A DNA stretch of 32,000 nucleotides from Candidatus Nanoarchaeia archaeon (GTDB taxonomy: Archaea > Nanobdellota > Nanobdellia > Woesearchaeales > JANQNC01), in assembly GCA_028279745.1 (NCBI GenBank), contig JANQNC010000001.1:630001-662000 (forward strand), written 5' to 3'. Under the pieces are notes generated by a model. It was given only the letters and a program-made list of their open reading frames with translations. It did not search any database and was not told the DNA's origin. The translations under genes and the position numbers were made by a program. Shown here in pieces: positions 11,227 to 32,000 of this stretch (positions are counted from its first letter, which is position 1; the number at the start of each line of letters is the position of its first letter).

Positions 11227-11272
11227 ATTATCACCTTTTTTTTCTTTTTTCATTTTATTATACCTTGATTTG

Positions 11273-16073: not shown

Positions 16074-16108
16074 AAGTGAGCATCTTAGTGCATTTTATAA
16101 AAATGTTT

Positions 16109-17401
16109 CTAAAGAAATGGTGCAATGTCTTTCTGTTTAGGTATATGATTAATGAAATAAATGTGTCTAAAGGAAGGGTGAGAGTAAAGTTTAATTCTAC
16201 CCGAAACTTTGTACTCCAAGACATCTTCACCATGTATCTTGCACGGCTTCTTTTTCATCTGTCTTGCACCATTAAGTATGTTGCCATCGCAAAAACTCTC
16301 AAGATGAGATATGCAATGCTCCCAAGTCTTAGCAGAGTCTGTTGCATTTGTGACTAAAGTAACGATGGGGTAATGATAGTCTGCACTACGGTCTAGTGCA
16401 TTGTCAGTTACAATAACCGAGTAATAATTATCAATATCAAGTTTCTTACATATGTCTGTGTAGATTTTACCCATAATAAGTTTTGGTTTGTTTGTTTTAT
16501 TCACAAAATTTAGATCAAATGTATTTACACCTAATTTTTTACAAACCCCCTCAAACACATCATCAAGAGTGAGATTCTTAAGATTTAGCTCGCCATCAAA
16601 GGTTTCAATATCACACCCCATCATGTTCAGCAAGTCCCTATGCTTCGCCATCACTTTAGGACGTCTTCCTTTATTCAAACTTTTAATATATGAACTGAAC
16701 CCCTTAGTTAATTCAGCCAGGTGTTCATCCATTTTTTCACTTAGTAACGGAATGTATTTTCGATTCATGACCTCCAACGTCATATGTTCACGTGCATTCG
16801 CTATTAGAGGGACCGAGTATGCGGCATCAAATAAATCCCTAAACCTTCTTTTTGCAGTATCATATTTTGTGGTTCTACTGCCCCAATCAAAAGTTGCTGA
16901 AGAGATTATAGTTGAGTACTTTCGTTTTCCCCTTTTCTTTTTATATGTGTTAACAAAATTAAATAATCCTTTTCTAAGATTGTTGCTTATTTCACAAGTG
17001 TCATCCCAGTCTAAGAAAATAGCTGTTTTATTCTCATTGGTCTGTTCGTGAGATTTTGAAATAGAATAAGATCCAACAATACTCCACTCCCTCATCGCTT
17101 TTTTCGCAGACTCTTCTACACTTAACCCACTTTTTTTCTTATTGGTGACACAGTAATAAAAGAAAGCCACATTGAGCTTGGACCTTGCAAGGAAATGTTT
17201 ATAGATACTTTCAAGTTTTTCTACAGGAAGTCTGCAGTTGTACTTAACTTCTTTACTCCCATCAAAAAGTTCTGTAAAAACACCTACTGCTTCCATAGGG
17301 TGCATCTCAATCTTATCCTTAAAGAGGTTGTCACTATCTACATGGTTGACTTTGTTAAAAAAAGCCTCATATTCCTCAATAAACTGCTCTAAGTTTGCCA
17401 T
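16109..17401 (-). CDS. Orphan 430-aa cytoplasmic protein with HAD-superfamily-like motifs (tentative)
   Basis: Motif I-like AIFLDWDDT (DxDxT, Asp131 at nt 17009-17011). Motif III/IV-like NKPKLIMGKIYTDICKKLDIDNYYSVIVTDNALD resembles KPxP...x20...hhhhGDxxxD. A ~170-aa insert lies between them and a ~125-aa N-terminal extension precedes them. Confidence 0.4.
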   Translation of the reverse strand: MANLEQFIEEYEAFFNKVNHVDSDNLFKDKIEMHPMEAVGVFTELFDGSKEVKYNCRLPVEKLESIYKHFLARSKLNVAFFYYCVTNKKKSGLSVEESAKKAMREWSIVGSYSISKSHEQTNENKTAIFLDWDDTCEISNNLRKGLFNFVNTYKKKRGKRKYSTIISSATFDWGSRTTKYDTAKRRFRDLFDAAYSVPLIANAREHMTLEVMNRKYIPLLSEKMDEHLAELTKGFSSYIKSLNKGRRPKVMAKHRDLLNMMGCDIETFDGELNLKNLTLDDVFEGVCKKLGVNTFDLNFVNKTNKPKLIMGKIYTDICKKLDIDNYYSVIVTDNALDRSADYHYPIVTLVTNATDSAKTWEHCISHLESFCDGNILNGARQMKKKPCKIHGEDVLEYKVSGRIKLYSHPSFRHIYFINHIPKQKDIAPFL

Positions 17402-17559: not shown

Positions 17560-19551
17560 TTAAGGGAAAAGCCTTACTGAGAAAGAATCCAAATCATATA
17601 GTTGGTTGCCAAACTTGTCAACGCCAACAACAGCGAAATGATAAATCTTGCCTTCAGTTTCAGTTAAAGAAACTTGTATAGGTTTGTAATATGTCTTGGT
17701 TTCCTTGTCAAAATAGAAAACATCTGGATGAGTTACCATATCTGATTCAGTTGTTGCATCTTGAACAGTTGAAAGAACAAGTTTTTCCTCCCTAAAAGCA
17801 TCACTAACTTTCTTAAGATCAACAAGAGGCTTGTAATAAACAACATAGTGATCTATATCAGGGGAAGGACTTTGCTTAAATGATAGCAGTGCTGTTCTTG
17901 GAATTGTTTTAGGAAAACTAACTTCTATTGCAGGAGGTGGTGAAGAGTCATTAATGTACAAAGCAAAGTTAATTGACACATTCTGTATTCCTTCTGATGT
18001 TAAAACTTCATTGTAAGTTGGGATACACATCTTAAAGGTTCGATCATCAAGCCTGCATTCGTTATCAACAGAGTTAACACTTGATAAAATATTATTTTCT
18101 TTATGGACTACAAGCTTGTCTTCAACATCAGAGATGAAAAGATTAGAGATGAAACCTCGTTGAACATTTTCAATATCCGTAATCTCTATCTGTTGATTTG
18201 CTAAGACTGCAAAAGTCTTTGAACCATTTTTTATTATTTCAAACTCACTACCTTCAACAAAAATCTCACACTCACAACCATCATCTTTTGAATTTAAGCA
18301 AGAGTCAAGCTGTTCTCTGAAAGATCGTAATGGATCTAGTTTGTCACACTGATAAGACATTTGCCAGCCATTAAAAGCAGCTTCGTTAGCTACACACTCA
18401 CTAAGAGCATAAGAGTCTGTTACTGTCAGATCTTGTTTTGAGTTACATGTATCTGATAGCTGTTTTGCCAATCTTACATAAGCAGAGTAGTTTAATGAGG
18501 ATTTTTCAAAAGGAATATTGAAGTAAGGCATCCTTGAATATAATCCAACAGTCCCGAATGTTGTCTCGACATCTCTCCCCAATGATTCTTGCAATGCGTT
18601 GAAAGGGTTTACAGCTCTTCCGTTGTACTGATCTTGATAAATTCCAAAATGCAAGTGGGGTTGAGTGTTATCAGGAATTCCGCAAGTGTTTCCTGGTTTA
18701 GTGGAGTCGCAATCAGTGTAACATCCTAAATTATCACCTACCGTGCCAAGAATTTCGCCAGCGTTAATTGTATCTCCAACTCTCCAAACTCTGTCTTCAT
18801 CAGTGTTAATACCATACTTCTCTAAATGAGCATAATAGAAATAGTTGCCTTCACTATCTCTTACGCCTATCCTATTACCACCCCATTCATTACACCCTAT
18901 CCGTTCAATCCTTCCTGAGACTGATGCTATTACAGGTGTACCCATAGGTGCAAAAATATCTGTGCCTTCGTGAAGTCTTCCGCCGGGCCTTTCATAACCC
19001 CAATCGTTCTCAAAATAATATTTTTCTTTAACCGGGAAATATTCTAGTTTGCCATCATAGAAAGCACCTTGACCAACCTTAACTGTTATAGGTGCGACAG
19101 GAGTTGCTAGAATTCTGTCTTCTGTAATGTTTATCTTATAGTTATTTTTCTTTAACCTGAAGTTAGCCTCGTAAATATCCAAAGGACTGTTAAGGTTATT
19201 GTTGAATATTGATACAAAATTGTTTGGAATATTATCTAAGTTGTAAACCGTGGATTCGTTTGACCATAATGTGAAACCATAATAACTATTTTCCATTTCT
19301 GCACTGCCGCCCTGATTTCCCAAATCATACAATGATTGCTGAGATGAAATAACTGCAGAATCTGTAATGTAGTTTACTGCTTTCTCAGCATCTGCATATC
19401 TGTTAAAAAGATCTACCTGTCTCTCTCCAACATACCCATCTTGAACATAATCAAACTGTTTTACAGAAAGAACCCTATAACTTGCAATCATAAAAACCAA
19501 GAATCCCAAAACTAGGAAAAGATTGAAAAATTGGGATTTCTTATTTAACAT
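17560..19551 (-). CDS. Prepilin-like N-terminus fused to an M23 (LytM/lysostaphin-type) metallopeptidase and a C-terminal FN3-like domain
   Basis: Trimmed start MLNKKSQFFNLFLVLGFLVFMIA (ATG 19551, 1 nt after the upstream stop). Catalytic HEGTDIFAPMGTPV (HxxxD, nt ~18958-18972) and QPHLHFGIY (HxH, nt 18647-18658). C-terminal DIDHYVVYYKP...YHFAVVGVDKFGNQ is FN3-like. Confidence 0.8.
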   Translation of the reverse strand: MLNKKSQFFNLFLVLGFLVFMIASYRVLSVKQFDYVQDGYVGERQVDLFNRYADAEKAVNYITDSAVISSQQSLYDLGNQGGSAEMENSYYGFTLWSNESTVYNLDNIPNNFVSIFNNNLNSPLDIYEANFRLKKNNYKINITEDRILATPVAPITVKVGQGAFYDGKLEYFPVKEKYYFENDWGYERPGGRLHEGTDIFAPMGTPVIASVSGRIERIGCNEWGGNRIGVRDSEGNYFYYAHLEKYGINTDEDRVWRVGDTINAGEILGTVGDNLGCYTDCDSTKPGNTCGIPDNTQPHLHFGIYQDQYNGRAVNPFNALQESLGRDVETTFGTVGLYSRMPYFNIPFEKSSLNYSAYVRLAKQLSDTCNSKQDLTVTDSYALSECVANEAAFNGWQMSYQCDKLDPLRSFREQLDSCLNSKDDGCECEIFVEGSEFEIIKNGSKTFAVLANQQIEITDIENVQRGFISNLFISDVEDKLVVHKENNILSSVNSVDNECRLDDRTFKMCIPTYNEVLTSEGIQNVSINFALYINDSSPPPAIEVSFPKTIPRTALLSFKQSPSPDIDHYVVYYKPLVDLKKVSDAFREEKLVLSTVQDATTESDMVTHPDVFYFDKETKTYYKPIQVSLTETEGKIYHFAVVGVDKFGNQLYDLDSFSVRLFP

Positions 19552-19552
19552 T

Positions 19553-20050
19553 TTAGTTATACCTCTGCAACTCAACATAAGCAGTCTTATTTATTGAAAC
19601 AGGAACATAAGCGTCAACTGAAGTTGTTGGCGTACCACCAGCACCAGCACCAGAACCTGCAAAACGATCAGGATACCCTTTTTTTTCGTAAATACTTATT
19701 TCGTATCCTACTTCAATCTCATTACTTCCCTTTTTGTAAATATAGATTGCTGAAGACAGCGCTTCGGTTGTCTTATTGTCAAGAATTCCTCTTAATGATC
19801 TATCGTTATAGGTTAAGGCAATCAACTCAGACATCTTAATTGTTTTATTGTTTACATCAACGGGCGTCCTAAGATAGTTAAGCAATACTAAGTTGGATGA
19901 AACCTCATTTGCTTTGCCCTCAATAGCGACTTCTCCCCTGTCACCTTGAACTGTAAACAAGACAAAGAAAACTGCTGCAATAGACACAAATGCAAGTATT
20001 GAAAATGTGTCAAGGTAAACATTTCCCGCCCAAAGTCCTTTCCTATTCAA
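19553..20050 (-). CDS. Prepilin-like protein (165 aa)
   Basis: TTG start. (M)NRKG-LWAGNVYLDTFSILAFVSIAAVFFVLF. 8-nt overlap with the upstream gene. GSGAGAGG linker near the C-terminus. Confidence 0.6.
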   Translation of the reverse strand: MNRKGLWAGNVYLDTFSILAFVSIAAVFFVLFTVQGDRGEVAIEGKANEVSSNLVLLNYLRTPVDVNNKTIKMSELIALTYNDRSLRGILDNKTTEALSSAIYIYKKGSNEIEVGYEISIYEKKGYPDRFAGSGAGAGGTPTTSVDAYVPVSINKTAYVELQRYN

Positions 20051-20552
20051 CTTCTACCACCACATCTAAATCTAATCTTCCCTTCTCAAGACTATTGTCT
20101 TTATGATACAAAATATAATATGACTTCTGAATATTTTCATACTGCTTGAAAGAAGTCAGAGGAATCCACCTATCATACCACAACTTATTGAAGTAAGAAG
20201 TCGAGATTATATTGTTGTTTTCATCTACTAACTCCCCTTTGAAAGCAATCAAAGGTTGTTGTCTTGCGGTATAGTTAAAGGCTTTTGAAAGTCTATCGTT
20301 GAGCACTGTTTCGTTGCTGAAGTATTGATAGTCTATGATGCCCGGGTGACAGATCTCATCACAGTAAGTAAAACCATTATTGCTAAATAAGACTCTTGAA
20401 ACCATAATCTCAGATTCTGCCTTGGCAGTATCAAATGCGATAGTGAAAAAAGAGCTTATGAAAAAAATAACAACAAAGACAACAATAGCAAGGAAAATAA
20501 AATTAAGAATAAGGTTTGGTTTTTTGAATCCAAGCAACGCTTTCTTATCCAT
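20043..20552 (-). CDS. Prepilin-like protein (169 aa; trimmed start)
   Basis: MDKKA-LLGFKKPNLILNFIFLAIVVFVVIFFI. The ATG at 20552 is preceded by GGGGGAG. 8-nt overlap with the upstream gene. Confidence 0.6.
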   Translation of the reverse strand: MDKKALLGFKKPNLILNFIFLAIVVFVVIFFISSFFTIAFDTAKAESEIMVSRVLFSNNGFTYCDEICHPGIIDYQYFSNETVLNDRLSKAFNYTARQQPLIAFKGELVDENNNIISTSYFNKLWYDRWIPLTSFKQYENIQKSYYILYHKDNSLEKGRLDLDVVVEVE

Positions 20553-21516
20553 AATACTCCCCCACTGCATTCTTAACTTTCAGAGCAAATTCTTTTCTTT
20601 TTTCTAAGTTGTTATATGGGAAGTCCTTGCTGACTTCTACCATAACTGAAACATCTGATTTACTGTTCTTTATGAAAGATTTTTCAGTGATAGTTATGTC
20701 CCCTTTGTCCAATTCATCCATTTCAGAAAATTCGTTGATCAAAAGACAGGCAAACTTCTTGTTCTTTAACGAATCATCTTTGATCTGGATATTAACTTTG
20801 TCTTCTTCAGTCAGAACGAAAGAAACTGTAAACGCTTTGTCTTGAGTAATACTTAACCGCGTAGTTTCAGAAACTTCCACATTATCATTCCGAGTCATAA
20901 AAACAGGATCAGGGATAAGTTGTGATTTAACTGCATTAGCTAAAATCCAAGTCACATTAGCTTCACGATTCTGCTCAATAACCATGCCTGGGAAACTACC
21001 TTGGTAAGAAGGATCTAAAACGACACCTTCCTTTTCTTTTCTGAAATTCTTATTTAGTGCTTCTGCGCAACCTAGTCTGTCTGATACGAATTTTATCTCT
21101 CCACCACTTATTGAAAGTGTGTTTGATGATTTTTTGAAGCTGATATCTGAATTGTTTATGAGATTTAGATGAGTGTAAGCTACAGATTGTTCTAGATTAG
21201 AATCAGACACGTAGGGAAAACTTATTCCATTAACGGGTTCTTTAAAGAAAATAGTTGCTTTCCCACCTTCAAAGCTAGCGCTGAAATTATTTATCCTGCC
21301 AGTGTAAATATAATTTACATCACCTGGTGCACCATATATGGATGTGGTCATCAAACCTACTTCCTTAGCAAGATAAATCTTATCAAACAAAATATCATTC
21401 TTAATATCACTAAGTTTAACTGAAAAAGAGATAAAAACAGTAAGAACTAACGCAATTTCCATCAAAACCCACAACATACTATGGGTTTGTGCTCTTTTAC
21501 CTAACCCCTTTTTCAT
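20545..21516 (-). CDS. Prepilin-like protein with a C-terminal domain resembling a degenerate Amidase_3 (MurNAc-L-Ala amidase) fold
   Basis: N-terminus MKKGLGKRA-QTHSMLWVLMEIALVLTVFISF. The C-terminal half reads VVLDPSYQG..PGMVIEQNRE...FMTRNDNVEVSETTRL...AFTVSFVL...NIQIK...KKFACLLINEF...SDVSVMVEVS...EKRKEFALKVKNAVGEYY. This parallels the Amidase_3 consensus (iDpGHGG..E..tR.D..v.l..R...dlfiSiHaN..evyy..lA..i...pavLvE..k.a.ai..gi..y), but the His positions are replaced. Confidence 0.55.
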   Translation of the reverse strand: MKKGLGKRAQTHSMLWVLMEIALVLTVFISFSVKLSDIKNDILFDKIYLAKEVGLMTTSIYGAPGDVNYIYTGRINNFSASFEGGKATIFFKEPVNGISFPYVSDSNLEQSVAYTHLNLINNSDISFKKSSNTLSISGGEIKFVSDRLGCAEALNKNFRKEKEGVVLDPSYQGSFPGMVIEQNREANVTWILANAVKSQLIPDPVFMTRNDNVEVSETTRLSITQDKAFTVSFVLTEEDKVNIQIKDDSLKNKKFACLLINEFSEMDELDKGDITITEKSFIKNSKSDVSVMVEVSKDFPYNNLEKRKEFALKVKNAVGEYYG

Positions 21517-21538
21517 ATATACAATATTATATTACCGT

Positions 21539-21549
21539 GTTTATAAATG
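21539..21549 (-). promoter_or_regulatory. TATA-box candidate inside the pilin-like cluster (upstream of 20545..21516)
   Basis: The minus strand reads CATTTATAAAC in the 40-nt gap, ~25-30 nt upstream of the ATG at 21516. Confidence 0.3.
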
Positions 21550-21556
21550 TTATTCC

Positions 21557-22156
21557 TTAAGAAGAGAAAGTCAGAGTTATAATCTCGTTAGATTCCTTCT
21601 TATTAATCATGAACTCTTGACTGCCGAAATCAGATGTAGGATAAAGAATAAAATTCAAGTTTCCTGATGATTTGTAATCTTTAGCATTACTGAAGAATTT
21701 TGTCAAATCTTTATTTACAACAAATACAACCTTCTTATTGTAACCAACACAATCAATAGGATCTTCAAACCTACGATCATTTTGCTTGAAGTAACACAGA
21801 CAAGATTCCTGCAGACCACAAAGCAAAGGTTTAGGCAAGAAATCATCGACAGTTCTTGAAGAAGGACAGTCATTATCAAACTTATCATTACAATCATAAG
21901 AATAAGCAACAACTTTCACACTATTATCAAAACTGACAATTAGTGAGGAAGTGAGTTCTTCTTCTGACCTAATCAACTCATCAACATTTGTTGAGAGCCT
22001 ATCAAAATTATTCTTAGAAAGCTCTGATACTTTACTTCCAAAAAAGAAATCATAGATCCCTCCAAATAAAGGAGTGAAAATCCCTAAAAGAATAACTGCA
22101 AAAATAGCCAAACCTATAACCGTTTCAGTAGGAATCTTAATACCTTTCTTATTCAT
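21557..22156 (-). CDS. Prepilin-like Cys-rich protein (199 aa; trimmed start), paralog of 23010..23732
   Basis: MNKKG-IKIPTETVIGLAIFAVILLGIF. The ATG at 22156 is 1 nt after the upstream stop. Shares the motif DFLPKPLLCGLQESCLCYFKQND with FKIPKPAECGDKACICNYEDD in 23010..23732. Confidence 0.65.
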   Translation of the reverse strand: MNKKGIKIPTETVIGLAIFAVILLGIFTPLFGGIYDFFFGSKVSELSKNNFDRLSTNVDELIRSEEELTSSLIVSFDNSVKVVAYSYDCNDKFDNDCPSSRTVDDFLPKPLLCGLQESCLCYFKQNDRRFEDPIDCVGYNKKVVFVVNKDLTKFFSNAKDYKSSGNLNFILYPTSDFGSQEFMINKKESNEIITLTFSS

Positions 22157-22157
22157 T

Positions 22158-22367
22158 TTAACCAAAGTTCTGACATTCAGGCAAACCAGGATTATTAATA
22201 CAAGTAGAAAGATTTGTAATAGTCTCATTTTTAGGAGTTAAACCCGCAATGTTTTGTAAAACGTTACCAATCTGTTCTCTAAAAACCCATGCCATCAACG
22301 CAAGAAACAATAAAGCTAGGATAAACATAACCATCCAAAACTGAAGTTCTGCTCTCTTATCCATCAT
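22158..22367 (-). CDS. Small prepilin-like / membrane protein (69 aa), paralog of 23729..23887
   Basis: MMDKRA-ELQFWMVMFILALLFLALMAWVFREQIGNVLQNIAG. The FR(E/D)QIG motif after the helix is shared with the 52-aa ORF at 23729..23887. Confidence 0.6.
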   Translation of the reverse strand: MMDKRAELQFWMVMFILALLFLALMAWVFREQIGNVLQNIAGLTPKNETITNLSTCINNPGLPECQNFG

Positions 22368-22370
22368 ATA

Positions 22371-22658
22371 TCACCCAAATATAGGAATGCAACACTGTCC
22401 ATCTTTGTCTTGATCTGTTGTTGTGCCAACATATTTACAACCAGGAGTCAGAAGAACTGTTTCGTTTGAAGCGCACCTCTTATCATCCTTATCATCCATA
22501 CATGTACCTTTCTTAGCCTCACAACTGTTCAAGCCCTGTGAAAATCTTCCAGACTGAGTTGAAAAAATCCAACCTATAACCACTAAAGCAATCAAAGCTA
22601 AGACTGCGATAACAATAACGTTAATGGGCATTCCCTGCCCATTCTTAGAAAAAAACAT
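22371..22658 (-). CDS. Small Cys-rich pilin candidate B (95 aa)
   Basis: MFFSKNG-QGMPINVIVIAVLALIALVVIGWIF, then a ~60-aa head with 6 Cys ending GQCCIPIFG. AGGAG lies 9 nt upstream of the ATG. Paralogous to 22663..22953. Confidence 0.7.
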   Translation of the reverse strand: MFFSKNGQGMPINVIVIAVLALIALVVIGWIFSTQSGRFSQGLNSCEAKKGTCMDDKDDKRCASNETVLLTPGCKYVGTTTDQDKDGQCCIPIFG

Positions 22659-22662
22659 TTGT

Positions 22663-22953
22663 TTACTCTCCTATCTTAAGACAACAGTACTGCGGTTGAT
22701 CATCCACATTTCTACAGTTAAGTCCTGTTGTGTCTCTTATGTATCCGTCAATCAAATCCCCATCTGCGCTTGTCTGACATCCAGAATCAGTCGTACAGAT
22801 GTAGTTTCCCGGCTGGCTTTCACAATCACTAACTTGTGTGCTAAAGAAACCTAACCTTGACATGAATATAACACCAACTACAACTAAAACAAGCATAACC
22901 AAAATAGCGATGATAATAACATTCATCGGCAAACCTTGAGCTTTTTTATCCAT
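22663..22953 (-). CDS. Small Cys-rich pilin candidate A (96 aa; trimmed start)
   Basis: MDKKA-QGLPMNVIIIAILVMLVLVVVGVIF, then a ~65-aa head with 7 Cys ending PQYCCLKIGE. The ATG at 22953 is preceded by GAGGTGATTATC. The track start at 22962 is a GTG. Confidence 0.7.
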   Translation of the reverse strand: MDKKAQGLPMNVIIIAILVMLVLVVVGVIFMSRLGFFSTQVSDCESQPGNYICTTDSGCQTSADGDLIDGYIRDTTGLNCRNVDDQPQYCCLKIGE

Positions 22954-22996
22954 GATAATCACCTCTCTAATAGTATATGAAAAATGGCAATGTTAG

Positions 22997-23006
22997 TTTA
23001 TAAAGG
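22997..23006 (-). promoter_or_regulatory. TATA-box candidate driving the two small pilin genes
   Basis: The minus strand reads CCTTTATAAA in the 47-nt gap upstream of pilin A, ~45-55 nt before the ATG at 22953, with a GGTGAT Shine-Dalgarno site in between. Confidence 0.4.
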
Positions 23007-23009
23007 TTT

Positions 23010-23732
23010 CTACTTATTCAGACTATCTATATACTTAACTCTAGAATCTACATCAGAAGTTCTTGAAGAGATAAAAACTTCAGTGTAACCAGTTAGTTTA
23101 GTTTTTTGCACAAACAGCTCAAGTCTTGATCCAAATTCTGGTTTATTCGTTCCGCCAGTGCCGCCATTAAAGATCACAAGATAAGTTAAAGGATCTTGAC
23201 CAACTCTCACGCCGTGATTAAAAGGGTCTTCAGGAGATGCTCTGAAATTAATATCACCATCAAAAGTTATACATGAATCAACAATAAAATTGTCATTGTG
23301 GTCATCACCTTCAAAAGTGTCACCCCAACCATCATCCTCATAGTTACAAATACATGCTTTGTCTCCGCATTCAGCAGGTTTAGGAATCTTAAAATTCTTA
23401 TCAGCATCAGTTGTGCCCCCACTAGGACAGAGATTAGGAGATGAGGCTAGACATCTGGTGTCAAAACCAACCATGGCAGTCTCTTTATCAAGCCAGAACT
23501 CATCAATAGACCTGTAAGATTCATCTTTATCATCTGTCAAAAGAGAGTTAATCGTGGTTCTTAGGTTTATGATATCTGTGGTTTTCTTTGTTGCATTCTC
23601 ATCATTAAAGAAGTTAAATTTCCCAGCTAACTCTCTTATCTTTCCAGGACCTATCGCAATTGAAACTATCAAAAGAAAAATCATCAAACCTGCAAAAACC
23701 AGCTGCCAACTTAAAGCTCCTTTTTTCATCAT
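23010..23732 (-). CDS. Prepilin-like Cys-rich protein (240 aa), paralog of 21557..22156
   Basis: MMKKG-ALSWQLVFAGLMIFLLIVSIAI. Contains the PKPAECGDKACICNYEDD motif. Its ATG overlaps the stop of the 52-aa ORF (ATGA at 23729-23732). Confidence 0.65.
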   Translation of the reverse strand: MMKKGALSWQLVFAGLMIFLLIVSIAIGPGKIRELAGKFNFFNDENATKKTTDIINLRTTINSLLTDDKDESYRSIDEFWLDKETAMVGFDTRCLASSPNLCPSGGTTDADKNFKIPKPAECGDKACICNYEDDGWGDTFEGDDHNDNFIVDSCITFDGDINFRASPEDPFNHGVRVGQDPLTYLVIFNGGTGGTNKPEFGSRLELFVQKTKLTGYTEVFISSRTSDVDSRVKYIDSLNK

Positions 23733-23887
23733 CCACCACCAAAAGTAAGAGTTTCGGCAATCTTTTCTATGCCTCTACCGATCTGATCACGGAAAAAGAA
23801 CAAAACAATAAGCAAGACAACTAATAAGATAATTACATAAATCCACTTACCCAATTTGTCCCACATATTCTGTGCTTTTTTATTCAT
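23729..23887 (-). CDS. Small prepilin-like protein (52 aa), absent from the ORF track
   Basis: Hand translation: MNKKAQNMWDKLGKWIYVIILLVVLLIVLFFFRDQIGRGIEKIAETLTFGGG. GAGGGT lies 4-5 nt upstream and a TATA-like run is further upstream. Confidence 0.6.
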   Translation of the reverse strand: MNKKAQNMWDKLGKWIYVIILLVVLLIVLFFFRDQIGRGIEKIAETLTFGGG

Positions 23888-23906
23888 AATAACCCTCTTA
23901 GTCTTC

Positions 23907-23920
23907 TTATTATATAAAAT
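23907..23920 (-). promoter_or_regulatory. TATA-box candidate upstream of the 52-aa ORF
   Basis: The minus strand reads ATTTTATATAATAA about 20-33 nt upstream of the ATG at 23887, inside the 38-nt gap after gene 23926..24708. Confidence 0.35.
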
Positions 23921-23925
23921 TTGTC

Positions 23926-24708
23926 TTAATCAATTCTTCTTTGTTTTACTAACTCTTCACAACCAATCTCAGACATGTGATCATAAGGACTTACAAACAC
24001 CTTATACTCTGCTTCTGCAATCCCTGTAGCTTCAGCAAACTTTTTAGGAGCGTAACCCATCAAAACAACAGCGTAGTCATTATTCTCATGACCAGCATCT
24101 ATCAAACCATCCATAGTGTAAAATACTTGTTCAGTGTAAACATTAGCAATCTTACTGACATCAATTCTCTCAATAAACGGTTCATCTAAAGGAAACGCTT
24201 TGACGAATTTTCCACTATAACGTTTGTCTGTGTAATTCAAAAAAGCCTCTTTCTCCAAAACATAAGTTTCATCACCTGAGAGCTCAGTTATCTCATCAAA
24301 ATTAACAATAAAACGAGAACAGACAAAACAATAAAAATCATTAGTCAAGATATGGTTCTCAAAAGGATCTAGTTTTCCTTCACCGAACTGGACCCAGCAT
24401 TCTCTCATCAAAGGAGTTATTTGGTTTAATAGCTCTTCGGTCTGTTTTTCAGCGTCCTTTTCTTTAACAGTAAGGTTTTCCCTCCAGTTAGTTTCACACA
24501 TCAAAGGAACGTTAGTGCCGGAAACAAAATAAGAAAGCAAACTTCCCTGTTCTTTATCCATCGCTTGAATTGTCGCTAAACAAGAAGCTGCCTTCTGACC
24601 AGAAGGGTAAAGAACTTTTCCAGAAAGCTGAACGAAAAATATTACAAAAATTAGTACTGCAACTCCAAAAACCCACCATAAAACCTTATTTGCTTGTCCT
24701 TTTCTCAT
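23926..24708 (-). CDS. Prepilin-like protein (260 aa), paralog of 24712..25593
   Basis: MRKG-QANKVLWWVFGVAVLIFVIFFV. The shared core ECWVQFGEGKLDPFENHILTNDFYCFVCSRFIVNFDE matches SCTNGVGFGEQNPYIQDRYRGKSNCLVCSELYFEKEE in the neighbour. Confidence 0.65.
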   Translation of the reverse strand: MRKGQANKVLWWVFGVAVLIFVIFFVQLSGKVLYPSGQKAASCLATIQAMDKEQGSLLSYFVSGTNVPLMCETNWRENLTVKEKDAEKQTEELLNQITPLMRECWVQFGEGKLDPFENHILTNDFYCFVCSRFIVNFDEITELSGDETYVLEKEAFLNYTDKRYSGKFVKAFPLDEPFIERIDVSKIANVYTEQVFYTMDGLIDAGHENNDYAVVLMGYAPKKFAEATGIAEAEYKVFVSPYDHMSEIGCEELVKQRRID

Positions 24709-24711
24709 CTT

Positions 24712-25593
24712 CTAGTTATGCATGTAATAACAGACATTCCCCACATTAGTAACCTCATCAGGCAAACCTTTAGTTCCTTGCACAGTTTCAGTTATATCAA
24801 AACTGCTAAGTATTAATCTATCAGTTCCAATCCAGATAGAAGAGACAAACTCTTCATCATTCAAATCTGTATCAACATTAATGACAAAACCAAAAAAGTC
24901 TTTTCCTATAATGAAAGCTTCATTAACAGTATTACCTAAAAGCCTGTATTCATAAACTGTATTGTCTCTTGTGGTTAACACCAGAGGATTGTTGTCTCTT
25001 TTTGCCTGTAATAGTTTATCCCAATAACCTTTCTTATCCACTTTCCAAAGTACTGAGTAGTTTTCAGAGGTGTCAACAACAGCGAGATCATTCAAATCCA
25101 TAAACTGCTGAACTAAAACCCCAGATGCAGTGTGCTGAGTCATACGATCGAAAAAATAATCTGTCTTGGAACCAGGAACAAAATTATAGGTAGACCAATA
25201 AGGGATTTCCCTTATCTTTTCTTCCTTTTCAAAGTAAAGCTCAGAACACACCAAACAGTTAGACTTACCTCTATACCTATCTTGTATGTAAGGGTTTTGT
25301 TCACCAAAACCAACACCATTAGTGCAACTTACTAATCTTGTCAAAATCTTCTTCTTCAACTTATCAATATCATCAAAATCAGTCTCCTTGTAATTTGTGG
25401 GTTTTTCCCTAGGACAGTTTAGTTCTCCCTTCCCCTGTGAAGATAAAGCAATCTGCGCAGTACAAAGACTGGACGTTCTTGTCCTGTCAAAAAAGTTAAC
25501 AATACCTATCGTGATTATAAGAAGAACTATCGCAATACTAACAAGCAAGATAAGATTCTTTATCGTGTTCATGCCCTGTGCTTTTTTGTTCAA
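24712..25593 (-). CDS. Prepilin-like protein (293 aa)
   Basis: TTG start. (M)NKKA-QGMNTIKNLILLVSIAIVLLIITIGIV. The start overlaps the stop of the 40-aa ORF (TTGA at 25590-25593). Confidence 0.65.
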   Translation of the reverse strand: MNKKAQGMNTIKNLILLVSIAIVLLIITIGIVNFFDRTRTSSLCTAQIALSSQGKGELNCPREKPTNYKETDFDDIDKLKKKILTRLVSCTNGVGFGEQNPYIQDRYRGKSNCLVCSELYFEKEEKIREIPYWSTYNFVPGSKTDYFFDRMTQHTASGVLVQQFMDLNDLAVVDTSENYSVLWKVDKKGYWDKLLQAKRDNNPLVLTTRDNTVYEYRLLGNTVNEAFIIGKDFFGFVINVDTDLNDEEFVSSIWIGTDRLILSSFDITETVQGTKGLPDEVTNVGNVCYYMHN

Positions 25594-25712
25594 CTTAACC
25601 CTCCTGCTGTGAGAATCCTTCTCACCACTATAAATGCAATTATCATAAATATCAAAATAGAAACAATAATTATTATGGGATTAATTCCAACTTCTTCTCC
25701 TTTTTTATCCAT
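25590..25712 (-). CDS. Mini prepilin-like / single-TM protein (40 aa), absent from the ORF track
   Basis: Hand translation: MDKKGEEVGINPIIIIVSILIFMIIAFIVVRRILTAGGLS. The ATG is 1 nt after the upstream stop. Confidence 0.5.
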   Translation of the reverse strand: MDKKGEEVGINPIIIIVSILIFMIIAFIVVRRILTAGGLS

Positions 25713-25713
25713 T

Positions 25714-26181
25714 TTATCTACACACCTCCAAATATAAAGTAAGCAATGAACCATATGTGGTTCTTAAAGGTTGGTAAGCGTTTTCTCGTTCACCACGACA
25801 GCCACTATTAATACCAACAGGTAAACTTTCTCCATCCACGTCTGCCTCAAACACAAAACTCCTGTCCTGCACAGTGAGTGTTTTATCTAAAATATAAGCA
25901 ATCGTACGGTTGACATAAGAGCAACTGTGCTCGTTATCACAAACTATTGCACCCCTAGTAGCACAATCAAGCAACAAGTCCTGAATATTAAGGCCTCTGC
26001 AAGTAGTAGTTGTGTACTGCAATGAATTTAAGGTAGATGAAGCAACAACACTTGTCGTAACTCTTTGCTCAAGCTCTGACTGAGGTCTCAAAACAACAAA
26101 AGCAATGAAAAACAGCAGACCTACCGCTATCAAAATCACAACAACAACCATACCCATAACTTCTGTCTGTGCTTTCTTCAT
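25714..26181 (-). CDS. Prepilin-like Cys-rich protein (155 aa)
   Basis: MKKA-QTEVMGMVVVVILIAVGLLFFIAFVV. 7 Cys in the head. 1-nt gap to the upstream gene. Confidence 0.65.
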   Translation of the reverse strand: MKKAQTEVMGMVVVVILIAVGLLFFIAFVVLRPQSELEQRVTTSVVASSTLNSLQYTTTTCRGLNIQDLLLDCATRGAIVCDNEHSCSYVNRTIAYILDKTLTVQDRSFVFEADVDGESLPVGINSGCRGERENAYQPLRTTYGSLLTLYLEVCR

Positions 26182-26182
26182 C

Positions 26183-26641
26183 TTAACCCGTCCTAATCGT
26201 AATCAAACCCATGTGATACTCATCCTCAATAGGATACCATAATGAAACTGGAATAAACGAGGCAGTTCCTATCGTTGTTCTGTTGTATAAAATACGGGAC
26301 CAATTTCCAGGATAAACCTCTTCAACAATCACAAGACTGTTTCCTAACTCATCACTATAATAAATTCTGTTAGTGCCATTAGCCATAACTTCTGATAACG
26401 ATTCCAGTTTCAGTACATCAATGCAAGTAAAAACATCATCTCCCCCACCACACTGAAGCTCAGGTAAAAAGAGAAGCTTTTGCATGTTCTCAATAGCTTT
26501 CAAATCTCTATACTTTTTAATATCTTCTTTGGCACTTCCAACTTGAATGTTAGCATAAAAAACTAACCCGATCACTAGAATGAAAAAGAAGACTATTAAA
26601 ACCATCATCGTCTCCATCATTTTCATCTGTGCTTTTCTCAT
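26183..26641 (-). CDS. Prepilin-like protein (152 aa; trimmed start)
   Basis: MRKA-QMKMMETMMVLIVFFFILVIGLVFYA. The ATG at 26641 is 2 nt after the upstream stop. The track start at 26662 would overlap the upstream gene. Confidence 0.65.
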   Translation of the reverse strand: MRKAQMKMMETMMVLIVFFFILVIGLVFYANIQVGSAKEDIKKYRDLKAIENMQKLLFLPELQCGGGDDVFTCIDVLKLESLSEVMANGTNRIYYSDELGNSLVIVEEVYPGNWSRILYNRTTIGTASFIPVSLWYPIEDEYHMGLITIRTG

Positions 26642-26643
26642 TT

Positions 26644-27690
26644 TCAATAAACCAACGGACAAGACTGCCTTCTAATATAATTATCCTGATACGAGTCAAG
26701 ACTTAAAGCATTAGTTGTTAACGTGTCCCTTACAGAAGGACTGTAACCTAAACTTGCAGTCACAATCATCTCATCAATAATTGAGTCAGGCTGGAAATAA
26801 TAATCACGGCAGTACTCAGGAGCAAGATTTGGGTTTTGTTGAAGCTTTAACATCCTGTTCTTGTACACTTGAGCAACTATGCTGAATGTATTTAACGCTT
26901 TATTCATGTTGCAATCATAAGTATCTTTAGAATCTGCAAATATAGCAGCATACATGGTGGCTTCAGAATCAGAATCAGTGCCGAAGAAAGGGGATGTGCC
27001 TTCAGAAACTAAAGATTCCTGATCCATTACATAAAAATTAACATTGTAAGGTGGAGAAGATGTTATGCTTACTGCCCTGACATCAGGGTCAGCAAAATTA
27101 TAAAAACGAGACAGATCAAGATTTTGGATATTGTTATCACAATCAAAACATACAATCTTAATCTTATAACCACTACTTATGTCAATAGTATCAACACTGT
27201 TCTCATCAACCAAATCAACATTCAAAAACTTGTTAGCCATACGCTCATAAACATCATTAGTCAAAAGCGAGTTGGTGTTAGTGTCAAGAATAACATATTT
27301 TGCATCAGGACTTGTGATAAACAAAAGATTTGTGACCTTAAATGGAATGCTCCAAGGCATGCTCCACAATAACATAGTCCTGCCTTTAACACGGTCAGGA
27401 GTAAAAATGGCCCGGTAGTTAATGCTTTCAGACACTCCCTTGAGCCTATAATCCTCACAGCTGAAAAAGATTTCTAAATCATGAAGGTTAAGCTCGGCAG
27501 CACTTCCCCCGCTAACTCTTGCAGAAGTAATCTTAGTCTCTAAATCTTTAATTAAGGAAGCGCTAAGCTTCTGTTCAGAAGCTTCCCTCTGCTGCAAAAC
27601 AAAAACAACAAAGAAAGAAAGGATTATTGCTCCAGCTACTAAAACAAACATCCAGTTAAACTGTATCTCTATCGCACCCTTCTTCCTCAT
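26644..27690 (-). CDS. Prepilin-like protein (348 aa; start 27690, or 27699 as in the track)
   Basis: MRKKG-AIEIQFNWMFVLVAGAIILSFFVVFV. The ATG at 27690 forms an ATGA overlap with the upstream stop (27687-27690). Confidence 0.65.
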   Translation of the reverse strand: MRKKGAIEIQFNWMFVLVAGAIILSFFVVFVLQQREASEQKLSASLIKDLETKITSARVSGGSAAELNLHDLEIFFSCEDYRLKGVSESINYRAIFTPDRVKGRTMLLWSMPWSIPFKVTNLLFITSPDAKYVILDTNTNSLLTNDVYERMANKFLNVDLVDENSVDTIDISSGYKIKIVCFDCDNNIQNLDLSRFYNFADPDVRAVSITSSPPYNVNFYVMDQESLVSEGTSPFFGTDSDSEATMYAAIFADSKDTYDCNMNKALNTFSIVAQVYKNRMLKLQQNPNLAPEYCRDYYFQPDSIIDEMIVTASLGYSPSVRDTLTTNALSLDSYQDNYIRRQSCPLVY

Positions 27691-28244
27691 TCTTCCCATT
27701 CTGTAACCTTAACTCCTCCTCTAACACCCTCAAACTGGAGCTCCACATAGCCACTAATAACTTCAGAACAGAAATAGTAAGGATGTTCAAGCTTTACCTT
27801 GCCAACTGACTCAGCAGAAACAACACCATCACTGTCTATAAGAAACAGATTAGTGTTTGATTCTCTAAGCTCTGGAGATATATCGGGGCCAGAAGGCCTA
27901 ATACTAATTTCATCAAGAATCAAAGGGTAATCTGAGGTAATTATTCCACCTGAATCAGTATCTGCACTTACAAAAGTGTTATAGTTAACTTCATAATCAA
28001 CTAAACATACCGCTGAGTAGTCTGAAGGAACCTTGTATTCTACCTGGTCAATACTCCTAAATCTAGTTCCATCAACAGCATTCGACACACCATTAACAAA
28101 TCTAGTGTACAAAATCTTATCTTGGTTCTCAAGCTGTTGACCAACAAACCTAACACCAAACAATAGCACCAAACCAGCAATCACAATTGCCATGATATAA
28201 ATAAAAATCTGTCCCGATATCTGAGCTTTCCTCACAAAAATCAC
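27687..28244 (-). CDS. Prepilin-like protein (185 aa), first of the run
   Basis: A GTG start at 28244 (GTGA overlap with the adhesin stop) or at 28235. ..VRKA-QISGQIFIYIMAIVIAGLVLLFGV. Confidence 0.65.
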   Translation of the reverse strand: MIFVRKAQISGQIFIYIMAIVIAGLVLLFGVRFVGQQLENQDKILYTRFVNGVSNAVDGTRFRSIDQVEYKVPSDYSAVCLVDYEVNYNTFVSADTDSGGIITSDYPLILDEISIRPSGPDISPELRESNTNLFLIDSDGVVSAESVGKVKLEHPYYFCSEVISGYVELQFEGVRGGVKVTEWEE

Positions 28245-31030: not shown

Positions 31031-32000
31031 TCATACTCAAAATCTGGCTCTTCAGGAGCTTTCCGATCTGAAATCATCAGTAATTCCTGAACAATCTGGT
31101 TGCCAGAGTAATCAACACCAATTAGGTTTATACGGTTCATGACCTCTTCGCCAGGGTCAGTTTCAAGGAAAAGCTCTATAGTGAAAGTATCATCAACTAT
31201 TGAAGCTTGATCATTCAATATTTCTTCAAATATGAAATCAACATCTCCTCTCTTGAAAGTGCCGTGAGCTATTACACTATTCTTATCAGTCCTGTAAACA
31301 TTATCACCCATCCATAAAGCATCTTCAATGTAAGTTACCTTGAAAGGGGGCTCTACAACCAGAGGTGTTAATGTGTATTGTATTTCTGCTTCATTTCCTG
31401 CTTTATCCTTTACTGAAACTTTTACATTAGACGTATTATCAATACTTATCACTCCGTTAAAGAATCCTTCTGTGTAAGTGTTTTCTTCAACTTCTGCCAT
31501 GAACTGGTTAATGAAAACAGACTCCAAACCATTAGTGTCTGACCATGTTCCCCTAACTGTTGGAGTGTAAGTTGTTGTTATATTTCCAGATGTTACCTGG
31601 ATAATAGGAGAGGTTGTATCAACAATAAATTCTCTGTTAGCAACTCCCGTCTTTGCACCAGAGATCGCTTCAATTTTCATACTATGTTTTCCCTCTGTTA
31701 AAACAGGTGAAGAAACAGTGTAAGTTCTTAGATCGACAGCAGTTGTTATTGCAGGAGTGTTGTCAACTGTAACTGTAATTCCCCCATCAACATCTTTATC
31801 GAAAGTTAGCGTAAAAGTTGGGGTTGTTGAATTAGTATATTTTGGAATTGCTGAAGTTAAAGTAGGTGCGTCTTTGTCGTATGTGAAAGACCAAGCAGTT
31901 GAAGCAGTGTTATTGACTAAATCAGATGCTGACAAAGCCATGTCAAACTCTTCAAAGTCTACAGCTGGCGGTAATGATATAATATAACTTAAACTTCCAC
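31027..32000 (-). CDS. C-terminal part of another large Ig-like-domain surface protein; N-terminus beyond the window
   Basis: The frame stays open upstream of the track ATG (31941) to nt 32000 (..GSLSYIISLPPAVDFEEFDMALSA..). Domain-boundary motifs DKDAPTLTS and VDTTSPIIQVTS are present. Its stop overlaps the next start (ATGA at 31027-31030). Confidence 0.75.
   Translation of the reverse strand, partial: GSLSYIISLPPAVDFEEFDMALSASDLVNNTASTAWSFTYDKDAPTLTSAIPKYTNSTTPTFTLTFDKDVDGGITVTVDNTPAITTAVDLRTYTVSSPVLTEGKHSMKIEAISGAKTGVANREFIVDTTSPIIQVTSGNITTTYTPTVRGTWSDTNGLESVFINQFMAEVEENTYTEGFFNGVISIDNTSNVKVSVKDKAGNEAEIQYTLTPLVVEPPFKVTYIEDALWMGDNVYRTDKNSVIAHGTFKRGDVDFIFEEILNDQASIVDDTFTIELFLETDPGEEVMNRINLIGVDYSGNQIVQELLMISDRKAPEEPDFEYE

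Follow-up and report, generated by a model that had tools for sequence, protein, structure and literature searches.

A conserved array of class III signal proteins in Woesearchaeota as a candidate locus for the subunits of a type IV filament-like surface structure

Why does a tiny, uncultured Woesearchaeota-type DPANN archaeon encode seventeen consecutive proteins with prepilin-type N-termini, with no assembly machinery beside them? In this study, we analysed the window that holds these genes, a stretch of 32,000 nucleotides, and compared the locus with its counterparts in related genomes. We propose, with moderate confidence, that these genes supply the subunits of a type IV filament-like (TFF) surface structure whose assembly machinery is encoded elsewhere. 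The best reading of this stand-alone locus is a structure armed with bacterial cell-wall hydrolases.

Seventeen adjacent genes with prepilin-type N-termini

The original prediction described 17 co-oriented minus-strand genes with class III (prepilin-type) signals, and all are present, consecutive from 28235 down to 17560 and each with a pilin-like N-terminus (Table 1). They begin with the pattern M-x(1-3)-[KR]-[GAS], followed at once by a hydrophobic helix. In 16 of the 17, [KR][GAS] lies inside residues 1 to 4-9 and the 15-aa stretch after it has a mean Kyte-Doolittle hydropathy of 2.0-3.9; g11 instead has N at position -2, as does its ortholog in a related locus (L001). The n-regions are uniformly short (3-8 residues) and Gln occupies +1 in 10 of the 17 proteins, while g5, g8, g13, g15 and g16 carry charged residues among mature positions 1 to 5-10, which is atypical for such N-termini. 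When the same motif rule was run on every ORF and start codon in the six frames of the window, the single real gene start to fit it outside the array, among ~20 genes, was that of 8526-9059, which has a normal Sec signal peptide; the remaining matches were internal starts or antisense ORFs. Recurrence of the motif in the array is not a matter of chance.

Other features of the array were only partly as predicted. Tight packing holds at 13 of the 16 gene junctions (spacing -8 to +6 nt) and fails at three wider gaps, of 38 nt before g8, 56 nt before g10 and 40 nt before g14. Mature parts go down to 35 aa (g5) rather than ~20 aa, and the description of the mature parts as mostly unrelated does not extend to the paralogs g10 and g11 (E = 1e-14) and g9 and g13 (E = 1e-6), or to the weaker pairs g6/g7 and g8/g12. 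Cys counts are even in all 17 mature parts (0, 2, 6 or 12), which points to disulphide-bonded extracellular domains.

In agreement with the prediction that assembly machinery is missing from the window, our search of it detected neither a TFF ATPase nor a platform protein nor an A24 prepilin peptidase, and in 41 genomes the surroundings of the locus, out to 10 kb, likewise contained none. The class III and pilin HMMs put forward as a check (PF04021, PF07790 and TIGR02537) did not match the array proteins; curated pilin or class III HMMs matched none of the 17 proteins, nor the small-pilin family, and no solved pilin resembles the array proteins significantly in sequence or fold. The single feature suggestive of EppA-type processing is Q at +1.

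Table 1. Features of the array and its upstream region; a slash marks the predicted cleavage site.
Feature	Position	Strand	Length	Description	Recurrence and remarks
Giant A, C-terminal part	31027..32000	-			Frame open to window end, no stop 31941-32000
Giant B	28241..31030	-	929 aa	Conserved component	Encoded directly upstream of g1
g1	27687..28235	-	182 aa	Core class III protein, MRKA/QISGQIF...	Family in 36 loci
g2	26644..27690	-	348 aa	Core class III protein, MRKKG/AIEIQFNW...	41 loci
g3	26183..26641	-	152 aa	Core class III protein, MRKA/QMKMMET...	38 loci
g4	25714..26181	-	155 aa	Core class III protein, MKKA/QTEVMG...	37 loci
g5	25590..25712	-	40 aa	Tiny class III peptide, MDKKG/EEVGINPIIII...	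Ortholog in L001
g6	24712..25593	-	293 aa	Class III protein, 6 Cys	Paralog family with g7
g7	23926..24708	-	260 aa	Class III protein, 6 Cys	Paralog family with g6
Gap ahead of g8	23888..23925	-	38 nt	TTTATATA box	Box possibly an internal promoter
g8	23729..23887	-	52 aa	Tiny class III peptide, helix only	Flp/EpdE-like in size
g9	23010..23729	-	239 aa	Class III protein, 6 Cys	Paralog of g13; 7 loci
Gap ahead of g10	22954..23009	-	56 nt	Putative TTTATAAA box and strong GAGGTGA ribosome-binding site	
g10	22663..22953	-	96 aa	Small pilin-like protein, 6 Cys	Small-pilin family
g11	22371..22658	-	95 aa	Small pilin-like protein, 6 Cys, K-N-G/Q	Paralog of g10; 10 loci
g12	22158..22364	-	68 aa	Small class III protein, 2 Cys	Ortholog in L001
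g13	21557..22156	-	199 aa	Class III protein, 6 Cys	Paralog of g9
Gap ahead of g14	21517..21556	-	40 nt	Putative TTTATAAA box	
g14	20545..21516	-	323 aa	Class III protein	Degenerate Amidase_3 (N-acetylmuramoyl-L-alanine amidase) head, ~165-323
g15	20043..20552	-	169 aa	Class III protein	9 loci, each time directly after g14
g16	19553..20050	-	165 aa	Class III protein, no Cys	6 loci
g17	17560..19551	-	663 aa	Modular class III protein	Peptidase_M23 domain at 193-316

Conservation of the locus and its core

The locus occurs across Woesearchaeota, and the array in this window is not unique but its full-length form. All 17 genes occur in the same order in L001 (~50% identical), with the motif kept and at 40-70% identity, and g1-g4 with the preceding ~930-aa membrane protein recur in ~40 Woesearchaeota/Nanoarchaeia genomes. 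Synteny is conserved, and the cluster, which is uncharacterised, recurs unannotated across this whole group. The recurring order, seen in L003, L009, L015, L018, L021, L022 and L027, is g1-g4, a gene of ~40 aa, the g6-g7 pair, a gene of ~50 aa, a variable middle and g14-g17. The g5 position holds a 39-47-aa class III gene in L003, L018, L027 and others, the g6/g7 family is mostly paired (14-16 loci), and many loci have a class III gene of ~50 aa downstream of that pair. An S-layer-like gene lies directly downstream of the core in some loci.

That the N-termini behave like class III signals rather than generic signal anchors, as originally proposed, is borne out by the core families, in which the cleavage motif is kept among 25-31 orthologs per family that share only 20-40% identity. 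Position -1 is G/A/S without exception in the g1-g4 families and position -2 is K/R with a single exception, in g4. At +1, Q is found in 24 of 27 orthologs of g1, in 27/27 of g3 and in 24/25 of g4, and A in 28 of 31 orthologs of g2. The mature N-terminus is conserved separately within each family, with the consensus K[ASG]/Q[IV]xGQ[VI]F[IV]Y[IL] in g1, E at +6 in g3 (25/27) and E at +3 in g4 (23/25). Positions -2, -1 and +1 are (near-)invariant in ~45 small pilins as well.

The signature protein of the system is g2 (2225 clusters at 50% identity), which is also the only array protein with a confident structural model. Structure prediction had been suggested as a means of finding an N-terminal helix with a globular head, and the high-confidence AlphaFold2 model of g2 (pLDDT 93.9) has both, with a helix of 54 residues (9-62) and a head for which no relative was found in the PDB. 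Giant B has a signal peptide of the Sec type, repeats rich in Cys and Asp that are Ig-like and TSP3-like (weak Pfam matches, Big_13/TSP3), a single TM helix and a cytoplasmic tail of ~230 aa rich in Lys. In at least 28 loci a homolog directly precedes g1, at 23-27% identity over 400-950 aa, either as a protein of its own or as the final ~900 aa of a larger one. The frame of giant A, a giant surface protein encoded further upstream, shares 4 nt with the giant B gene. At this position related loci encode a protein of ~2100 aa, and the one weak match of giant A is a 2173-aa protein of L012.

Among the small subunits, g10 and its L001 counterpart are 100% identical over mature residues 1-30 and 54% identical in the head. 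Its family, with the motif K[AGS]/QG[LI]S[LI]N[VT]IIIAA...IFTGR.G, has 1-4 copies per locus. On these sequence features g10 is the favoured candidate for the major subunit of the filament, and the g10/g11 family looks like such a subunit. A weak Flp1_like match was obtained for g8 (E = 0.0023, below cutoff) and for the L001 ortholog of g12.

Cell-wall hydrolase heads

Peptidoglycan hydrolases are the sole recurrent recognisable class of heads among the class III proteins of all loci compared; since no other head domains are recognisable, host contact is a reasonable reading. Several enzyme-like heads had been described, and this window holds one intact enzyme, the M23 domain of g17, and otherwise only the degenerate Amidase_3 head of g14. 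g17 matches PF01551 with E = 1.1e-16 (61 bits, cutoff 28.7) and its catalytic motifs HEGTD, YYAHL and HLH are intact. The domain is preceded by a conserved N-terminal module (residues 1-160), to which the similarity between g17 and shorter homologs at other loci is confined, and followed by a C-terminal region of ~340 aa, rich in Cys and with no recognised fold; the AF2 model of g17 is poor, being confident in the M23 core only. Assignment of the g14 family to Amidase_3 is supported by matches of four of its eight members to PF01520 (best E = 1.4e-16; window copy E = 6.5e-4, below cutoff) and by a match of the family profile to PDB 4RN7 across the whole domain (E = 7e-4). Two of the three Zn ligands are gone in the g14 copies of the window, L001 and L002, and the first motif of the L002 M23 domain is degenerate, indicating that hydrolytic activity is not a conserved requirement. 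Class III proteins at other loci bear SLT, M15, lysozyme-like and DUF2272 heads, and Pfam and PDB searches with g6 gave no match.

A proposed assembly, its rivals and known systems

In our model, all 17 proteins would enter the membrane via the N-terminal helix, and an A24 peptidase encoded elsewhere would cut behind [KR]-[GAS], so that Q or A (+1) becomes the first residue. The always-present g1-g4, in fixed order beside giant B, may form a base or tip complex, analogous but not homologous to the minor-pilin complexes of four members that prime bacterial T4P/T2SS. The 6-Cys proteins g10 and g11 would polymerise into the filament body, a role suggested by the extreme conservation of the g10 helix, possibly with the helix-only g5, g8 and g12. 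Assembly into a filament is a step that we infer, as no peptidase, ATPase or platform protein was located. g6, g7, g9 and g13-g17 would be low-abundance modular pilins whose heads are displayed on the filament or its base, including the M23 endopeptidase of g17, which looks active from its sequence, and the amidase-derived module of g14, which probably binds peptidoglycan only. Since Archaea, to our knowledge, have no murein, the most likely target would be the cell wall of bacteria serving as host or prey, and the locus may encode a contact or penetration organelle. Recurrence of the cluster together with its hydrolase-related heads suggests a filament for contacting or attacking bacteria.

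Class III processing could also serve a short, membrane-proximal assembly with giant B, a bindosome- or pseudopilus-like rack with no long pilus that would anchor enzymes and adhesins at the cell surface. Most of the 17 proteins have large heads that a homopolymer would accommodate poorly, the array always adjoins a gene for a membrane-anchored giant protein, an S-layer-like gene follows the core in some loci, and there is precedent in the Sulfolobus sugar-binding proteins with class III signals that use TFF base machinery (10.64898/2026.04.22.720090). We nevertheless consider a rack unlikely, given that the small-pilin family, with its extremely conserved N-terminal helix and several paralogs, resembles a true filament subunit and that no substrate-binding protein occurs among the heads. 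The notion that the N-termini are uncleaved type II membrane anchors of envelope proteins, involving no TFF machinery, appears improbable. It accords with the absence of peptidase, ATPase and platform protein near 41 loci, with the lack of pilin HMM matches and with the basic-then-hydrophobic pattern common to signal anchors. Such anchors, however, need neither G/A/S at one fixed position nor Q next to it, and G/A/S then Q is (near-)invariant across distant orthologs in five families; the uniform n-regions and the pilin-like g2 helix, which extends well past a TM span, also argue against them.

A T2SS-like secretion pseudopilus, acting as a piston to export the adjacent giant proteins or the hydrolases, is very improbable. 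The conserved core of four with one large member recalls GspH-K and giant surface proteins are constantly linked to it, but these giants bear their own Sec signals and TM anchors, the hydrolases themselves have a class III N-terminus rather than a separate secretion signal, and our searches revealed no resemblance to Gsp pseudopilins. We prefer to read the array as the subunit locus of a TFF surface structure.

Archaeal TFF system 1, represented by the EppA-processed Epd pili of Methanococcus maripaludis, resembles the array in its class III N-termini with Q at +1, its several different pilin-like genes per system and its very short helix-only subunits (EpdE, compared with g8 and g12). Pilin genes may also sit apart from ATPase and platform genes in that system, as in the stand-alone pilin loci of M. 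maripaludis, and TFF systems 1 and 4A have been found in DPANN/Nanoarchaeota (10.64898/2026.04.22.720090). The Epd locus differs in comprising 11 genes, among them those for its peptidase, an ATPase and two platform proteins, where the array consists of subunit genes only, 17 in number. Epd or class III HMMs match no array protein, the mature N-termini of the array differ from QxSxE, and Cys-rich and hydrolase heads are a feature of the array and not of Epd.

The core g1-g4 recalls the minor-pilin complexes (GspH-I-J-K; FimU-PilV-W-X), with four adjacent pilin-like genes that are always present in fixed order, one member much larger (g2, ~345 aa, cf. GspK) and a large adhesin-like protein encoded alongside (the position of giant B, cf. 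PilY1). This is an analogy only, as there is no sequence or fold similarity, the conserved Glu at +5 is absent and the organism is an archaeon. Fusion of a pilin N-terminus to a functional globular module is shared with the modular pilins PilB and PilC of Streptococcus sanguinis and with the Sulfolobus bindosome substrates, and g17 can be viewed as such a protein, with a conserved pilin-like base (1-160) and a lineage-specific grafted module. The grafted modules of those systems are adhesin/lectin modules or substrate-binding proteins, whereas those of the array family are peptidoglycan hydrolases (M23, Amidase_3, SLT and M15), and the literature searched yielded no account of archaeal class III proteins with hydrolase heads. 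Earlier work proposes that Woesearchaeota possess peptidoglycan hydrolases and live as predators, in a way termed 'vampiristic', and bacterial-type M23 and GH23/SLT domains in Nanoarchaeia/Woesearchaeota are thought to target bacteria (PMC9723730; PMC12352652). Both reports consider Sec, Tat or no signal and leave pilins unmentioned; the hydrolases of the array differ from those reported in having class III N-termini and fixed positions within a conserved pilin-like array.

Seventeen class III genes and their neighbourhood

Seventeen consecutive minus-strand genes (g1-g17) each begin with M-x(1-3)-[KR]-[GAS] and run on into a strongly hydrophobic stretch, g11 being the one that differs. Gene starts were trimmed to the start codon closest to the motif before the N-termini were compared. 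Under a strict rule (a short, basic n-region with [KR]-[G/A/S] at its end, then a hydrophobic helix of ~20 residues) 16/17 conform, and g11 carries K-N-G, with N at -2. Gln, an expected feature of Epd-type pilins (those of Methanococcus maripaludis), occupies position +1 in 10 of the 17, and every mature part contains an even number of cysteines (0, 2, 6 or 12), as expected for disulphide-bonded extracellular domains. As a control for chance, the same rule was run on all ORFs and start codons in the six frames of the window; outside the array it returned one real gene start, which belongs to an ordinary Sec signal peptide, and otherwise internal starts and antisense ORFs. The motif in the array, set against this single real start, and the even cysteine counts show that the pattern is real and not due to chance, and the trimmed starts and six-frame control bear out the original prediction of seventeen consecutive co-oriented class III genes. 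The tight packing predicted with it (overlaps of 4 or 8 nt, gaps of 1-4 nt) describes most junctions, which lie between -8 and +6 nt, and breaks down at three gaps of 38, 56 and 40 nt. In each of these, the only sizeable gaps in the array, TTTATA[AT]A stands ~25-40 nt upstream of the next ATG. These boxes may be internal archaeal promoters, which would split the array into g1-7, g8-9, g10-13 and g14-17.

The window (~36% GC) contains no tRNA genes, and its archaeal markers are RadA, ribosomal protein uS2, an RPA-like OB-fold protein and a TRAM protein. These housekeeping neighbours and the conserved chromosomal context rule out that the array is viral or part of a mobile element. The window also encodes two small Cys-rich proteins that are unrelated to the array and are further candidate surface proteins, as well as a giant surface protein, in whose place the closest related locus, L001, has a 2646-aa Cadherin_4 protein. 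Coordinates are collected in the table.

Coordinates of features in the window and at related loci
Feature	Locus	Coordinates	Strand	Description
Giant surface protein	window	7-6813	+	2268 aa; cadherin-like repeats, C-terminal TM helix, three ~60-aa cytoplasmic repeats
Small Cys-rich protein (control hit)	window	8526-9059	-	Sec signal peptide, C-terminal TM anchor
RadA	window	10291-11253		archaeal marker
Small Cys-rich protein	window	12406-12717	-	Sec signal peptide, C-terminal TM anchor
Interval between array and RPA gene	window	15237-17401	-	holds the next two genes
LamG gene	window	15237-16073	-	LamG-domain membrane protein
430-aa ORF	window	16109-17401	-	soluble protein without family match
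Array	window	28235-17560	-	g1-g17
g14	window	20545-21516	-	Amidase_3 head compared
Gap with box	window	23888-23925	-	38 nt
Gap with box	window	22954-23009	-	56 nt
Gap with box	window	21517-21556	-	40 nt
Giant B	window	28241-31030	-	929 aa, upstream of g1
ORF beyond giant B	window	31027-31941		reading frame open to window end
Amidase_3 head compared	L009	17629-18639
Amidase_3 head compared	L022	10160-11155
S-layer-like protein	L038	2733-4985		directly after g1-g4
S-layer-like protein	L042	12250-14562		directly after g1-g4
Upstream class III-like protein	L007	1613-2815
Upstream class III-like protein	L015	2566-4236
Upstream class III-like protein	L020	2959-4158
Upstream class III-like protein	L029	72-2216
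Upstream class III-like protein	L034	702-2450
Upstream class III-like protein	L037	3581-4810
Upstream class III-like protein	L041	1328-2530

Conservation of the locus

All 17 genes recur in L001, which lies on a JGI metagenome contig, in unchanged order and at 40-70% identity to their counterparts in the window, and every one of them retains the N-terminal motif, down to the unusual K-N-G of g11. These 17 one-to-one orthologs rule out chance or an ORF artefact as the origin of the array. The RPA and RadA genes follow directly after the array in L001. The 430-aa ORF and the LamG gene that stand at this point in the window are absent from L001 and from a second relative, L002, and have no homologs in the loci; since the L001 array runs straight into RPA and RadA, we regard both as local insertions outside the system.

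A scan of GTDB species representatives for the g2 family yielded 41 loci, all of them from Woesearchaeota, Nanoarchaeia or Nanoarchaeota MAGs where the record title is informative. Many MAGs with the locus (L003, L004, L007, L011 and others) are entitled 'uncultured Methanosarcinales archaeon', and these titles are probably placeholders or mislabels. Compared by crude gene maps and iterated profile searches, the loci have a constant core, in which one or two giants are followed by class III genes of ~165, 345, 165 and 160 aa (g1-g4; in 36-41 loci), and behind it a variable tail of 0 to ~16 more class III genes. In the window, g1-4 are followed by a gene of ~40 aa, the g6/g7 pair, a gene of ~50 aa, a middle section that varies and includes small genes of ~90 aa, and finally g14-g15-g16-g17; this order recurs in L003, L009, L015, L018, L021, L022 and L027 at a mere 20-35% identity. 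The synteny in relatives that had been proposed as a check is therefore present, for the full 17-gene order in L001 and for the core order in 36-41 loci, and by these gene maps the array is conserved lineage-wide.

The giant membrane protein upstream of g1, giant B, combines a Sec signal with Ig-like and TSP3-like repeats, a single TM helix and a cytoplasmic tail of ~230 aa that is rich in Lys, and is homologous to the protein at that position in at least 28 loci. Upstream of the giants, seven loci (table) encode another class III-like family (K[SG]Q[IA]T[LIV]F..., 400-714 aa); in many cases a protein of 450-780 aa that ends in ...DLTSKLR stands before it, and the system may extend farther upstream than the window shows. 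In L038-L042 a 750-770-aa S-layer-like protein directly follows g1-g4, and a class III tail is absent. The 600-770-aa proteins found behind the core in some loci were considered as ATPases, and proved to be S-layer-like, AspRS or SMC-like.

Core families, candidate pilins and the filament interpretation

Across 25-31 orthologs of each core family, position -2 is K or R with one exception, in g4, and position -1 is G, A or S without exception. Position +1 is Q in 24/27 members of g1, 27/27 of g3 and 24/25 of g4, and A in 28/31 of g2. The mature N-terminus is conserved and differs family by family: Q[IV]xGQ[VI]F[IV]Y in g1, AIE[IV]QFNW in g2, Q[IVM][QK]MxE[TS] in g3 and Q[MT]E[IVM]xG in g4. Such fixed-position constraints ahead of a hydrophobic helix are expected of a processing site and of helix packing.

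The g2 family has 91 members in a 90%-clustered collection, all annotated 'hypothetical', with a Pfam domain on one fragment only, and an exhaustive profile search returned 2,225 clusters at 50% identity (1,224 of these at E <= 1e-30). AlphaFold2, given 86 family members, modelled g2 at a pLDDT of 93.9 and a pTM of 0.87, with a 54-residue N-terminal helix (9-62) leading into a beta-rich domain, an alpha/beta domain and a helical bundle; this predicted model has a lollipop architecture as in pilins. Its head found no significant match in the PDB by Foldseek (best E = 0.013, TM 0.22). Unannotated, with more than 2,200 clusters and a predicted fold without a solved relative, g2 serves as a signature protein. 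Two proteins were modelled, and the pilin-like helix plus head anticipated in the original prediction is clear in g2 and of low confidence in g17 (helix 2-34).

The best candidate for the polymerising subunit, that is, the major pilin, is g10 together with g11. Both belong to a family of ~90-aa proteins, of which a locus has one to four, sharing the consensus K[AGS]|QG[LI]S[LI]N[VT]IIIAA...IFTGR.G and a ~55-aa head usually containing six Cys. Q at +1 is the majority state among the small class III proteins (31/48). In g10, the window and L001 agree at all of mature residues 1-30 (100% identity) and at 54% of the head, compared with values of 26-83% for the other array genes, and g10 has a TATA-like box to itself along with a strong ribosome-binding site. 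It is this helix identity, with the small size, the multiple paralogs and the two putative expression signals, that singles out the pair.

Searches against known families were negative. Curated pilin and class III models from Pfam and NCBIfam, among them the proposed PF04021, PF07790 and TIGR02537, matched 0/17 array proteins and 0/30 small-pilin members, a negative outcome for the check put forward with the original prediction. Profiles of g1, g2, g3, g4, g6/7, g9/13, g15 and the small pilins found nothing significant among PDB sequences; the non-significant N-terminal matches were to geopilin (E = 0.53), the M. maripaludis archaellin 5Z1L (E = 0.58) and a flagellin-like protein (E = 1.6).

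The window had been predicted to contain no ATPase, platform protein or prepilin peptidase, and the same absence extends to its relatives. Neither an A24 or GxGD-type peptidase, nor a T2SSE-type Walker A motif (GxxGSGK[ST][ST]), nor a platform-like polytopic protein was found in the window itself or in the sequence up to 10 kb from the locus in 41 genomes (668 kb in total). The filament interpretation is weakest here, with machinery seen at no examined locus. Stand-alone pilin loci exist in M. maripaludis, and type IV filament (TFF) systems 1 and 4A are reported in DPANN/Nanoarchaeota (10.64898/2026.04.22.720090), which makes it plausible that the machinery is encoded remotely from the array. 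The absence would also be compatible with a short surface structure resembling a bindosome instead of a filament. It would suit N-termini that are uncleaved anchors as well; this is less likely, since the fixed positions seen in the core families are unexpected for a plain signal anchor.

Wall hydrolases and comparison with known systems

Enzyme-like heads, as originally predicted, are present in g17 and uncertain in g14. The former matches Peptidase_M23 (PF01551) at E = 1.1e-16 (61.2 bits against a gathering cutoff of 28.7), with the Zn/catalytic motifs intact: HxxxD (H194-D198), the AHL histidine and HxH (H299-x-H301). AlphaFold2 placed the M23 core above a pLDDT of 90; the whole model (pLDDT 56, 10 sequences) was too poor for a fold search. 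Since g17 shares only residues 1-160 with its shorter homologs at other loci, the M23 domain and C-terminal region are additions specific to its lineage, grafted onto a pilin-like base that is conserved. The window copy of g14 scores 20.2 bits against Amidase_3 (PF01520), below the gathering cutoff of 27; 4/8 members of its family match (best E = 1.4e-16), and the family profile covers the whole domain of the solved amidase 4RN7 (E = 7e-4). By these profile matches g14 is assigned to the Amidase_3 family. Where His-Glu-His and a catalytic Glu are expected, g14 of the window, L001 and L002 retains both Glu residues and has both His ligands replaced (DPSYQ and SFVLT), so that two of three zinc ligands are lost in comparison with the heads of L009 and L022. 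Loss of both histidines suggests peptidoglycan binding without hydrolysis. The window/L001/L002 clade is the only one with an M23 domain in g17, and in it one wall hydrolase (the g14 amidase) may have been replaced by another (the g17 M23).

Among 91 other non-core class III proteins of the loci, a Pfam census identified Amidase_3 (4), SLT (2), Peptidase_M15_4 (1), Lysozyme_like (1) and DUF2272 (1), with one-off matches to YidD, DUF4083 and TPR and no further domain class. Peptidoglycan hydrolases are thus the only recurrent heads recognisable by sequence. To our knowledge archaea have no murein, and the substrate is therefore likely the bacterial wall. Such a target fits the 'vampiristic' Woesearchaeota earlier proposed from GH23 genes (PMC9723730) and the M23 domains reported from Nanoarchaeia (PMC12352652); neither study connects wall enzymes with pilin-like N-termini or with this cluster.

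Among uncultured archaea, Woesearchaeota are some of the most abundant, and we know of no established host or means of attachment for them. The array offers a concrete, conserved and testable target, and its class III-tagged murein hydrolases point toward bacterial partners and away from archaeal ones. We tentatively propose, as a possibility that we rate below even, that it encodes an undescribed, Woesearchaeota-wide, TFF-like organelle, with a four-protein core, a giant membrane protein and peptidoglycan hydrolases as subunits, which breaches bacterial host walls. If true, a large part of a DPANN lineage that is itself very abundant would parasitise or prey on bacteria, not archaea, by a mechanism without a characterised counterpart. 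Literature searches returned no description of this cluster. The undescribed composite filament or host-contact battery of the original prediction is partly supported, holding as to conservation and novelty, and is weakened by the local absence of machinery and the unmatched pilin models. The array remains a solid lead on the way in which an abundant, uncultured group of archaea makes contact with other cells, and its mechanism is what we infer.

The closest system in operation is the archaeal Epd-type (system 1) pilus, which has in common with the array Q at +1, the use of several pilins, short subunits that consist of a helix only, and pilin genes away from machinery. The Epd cluster has a dedicated EppA peptidase, an ATPase and two platform genes, whereas none of these occurs in the window or related loci. 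The likeness of the four-gene core to the minor-pilin priming complexes of bacteria is one of analogy alone; neither PDB profile searches nor Foldseek gave significant homology to GspHIJK or PilVWX-FimU. The array does not fit the sequence models of known pilin families. Large stand-alone subunit loci of this type will be missed by archaeal TFF surveys anchored on ATPase and platform genes. In g17 the array resembles the modular pilins of Gram-positive bacteria, and would extend the modular-pilin idea to archaeal subunits armed with enzymes. Four features set it apart from known systems: its 17-20 subunit genes, its giant membrane protein as a constant partner, its Cys-rich heads and its hydrolase-armed subunits.
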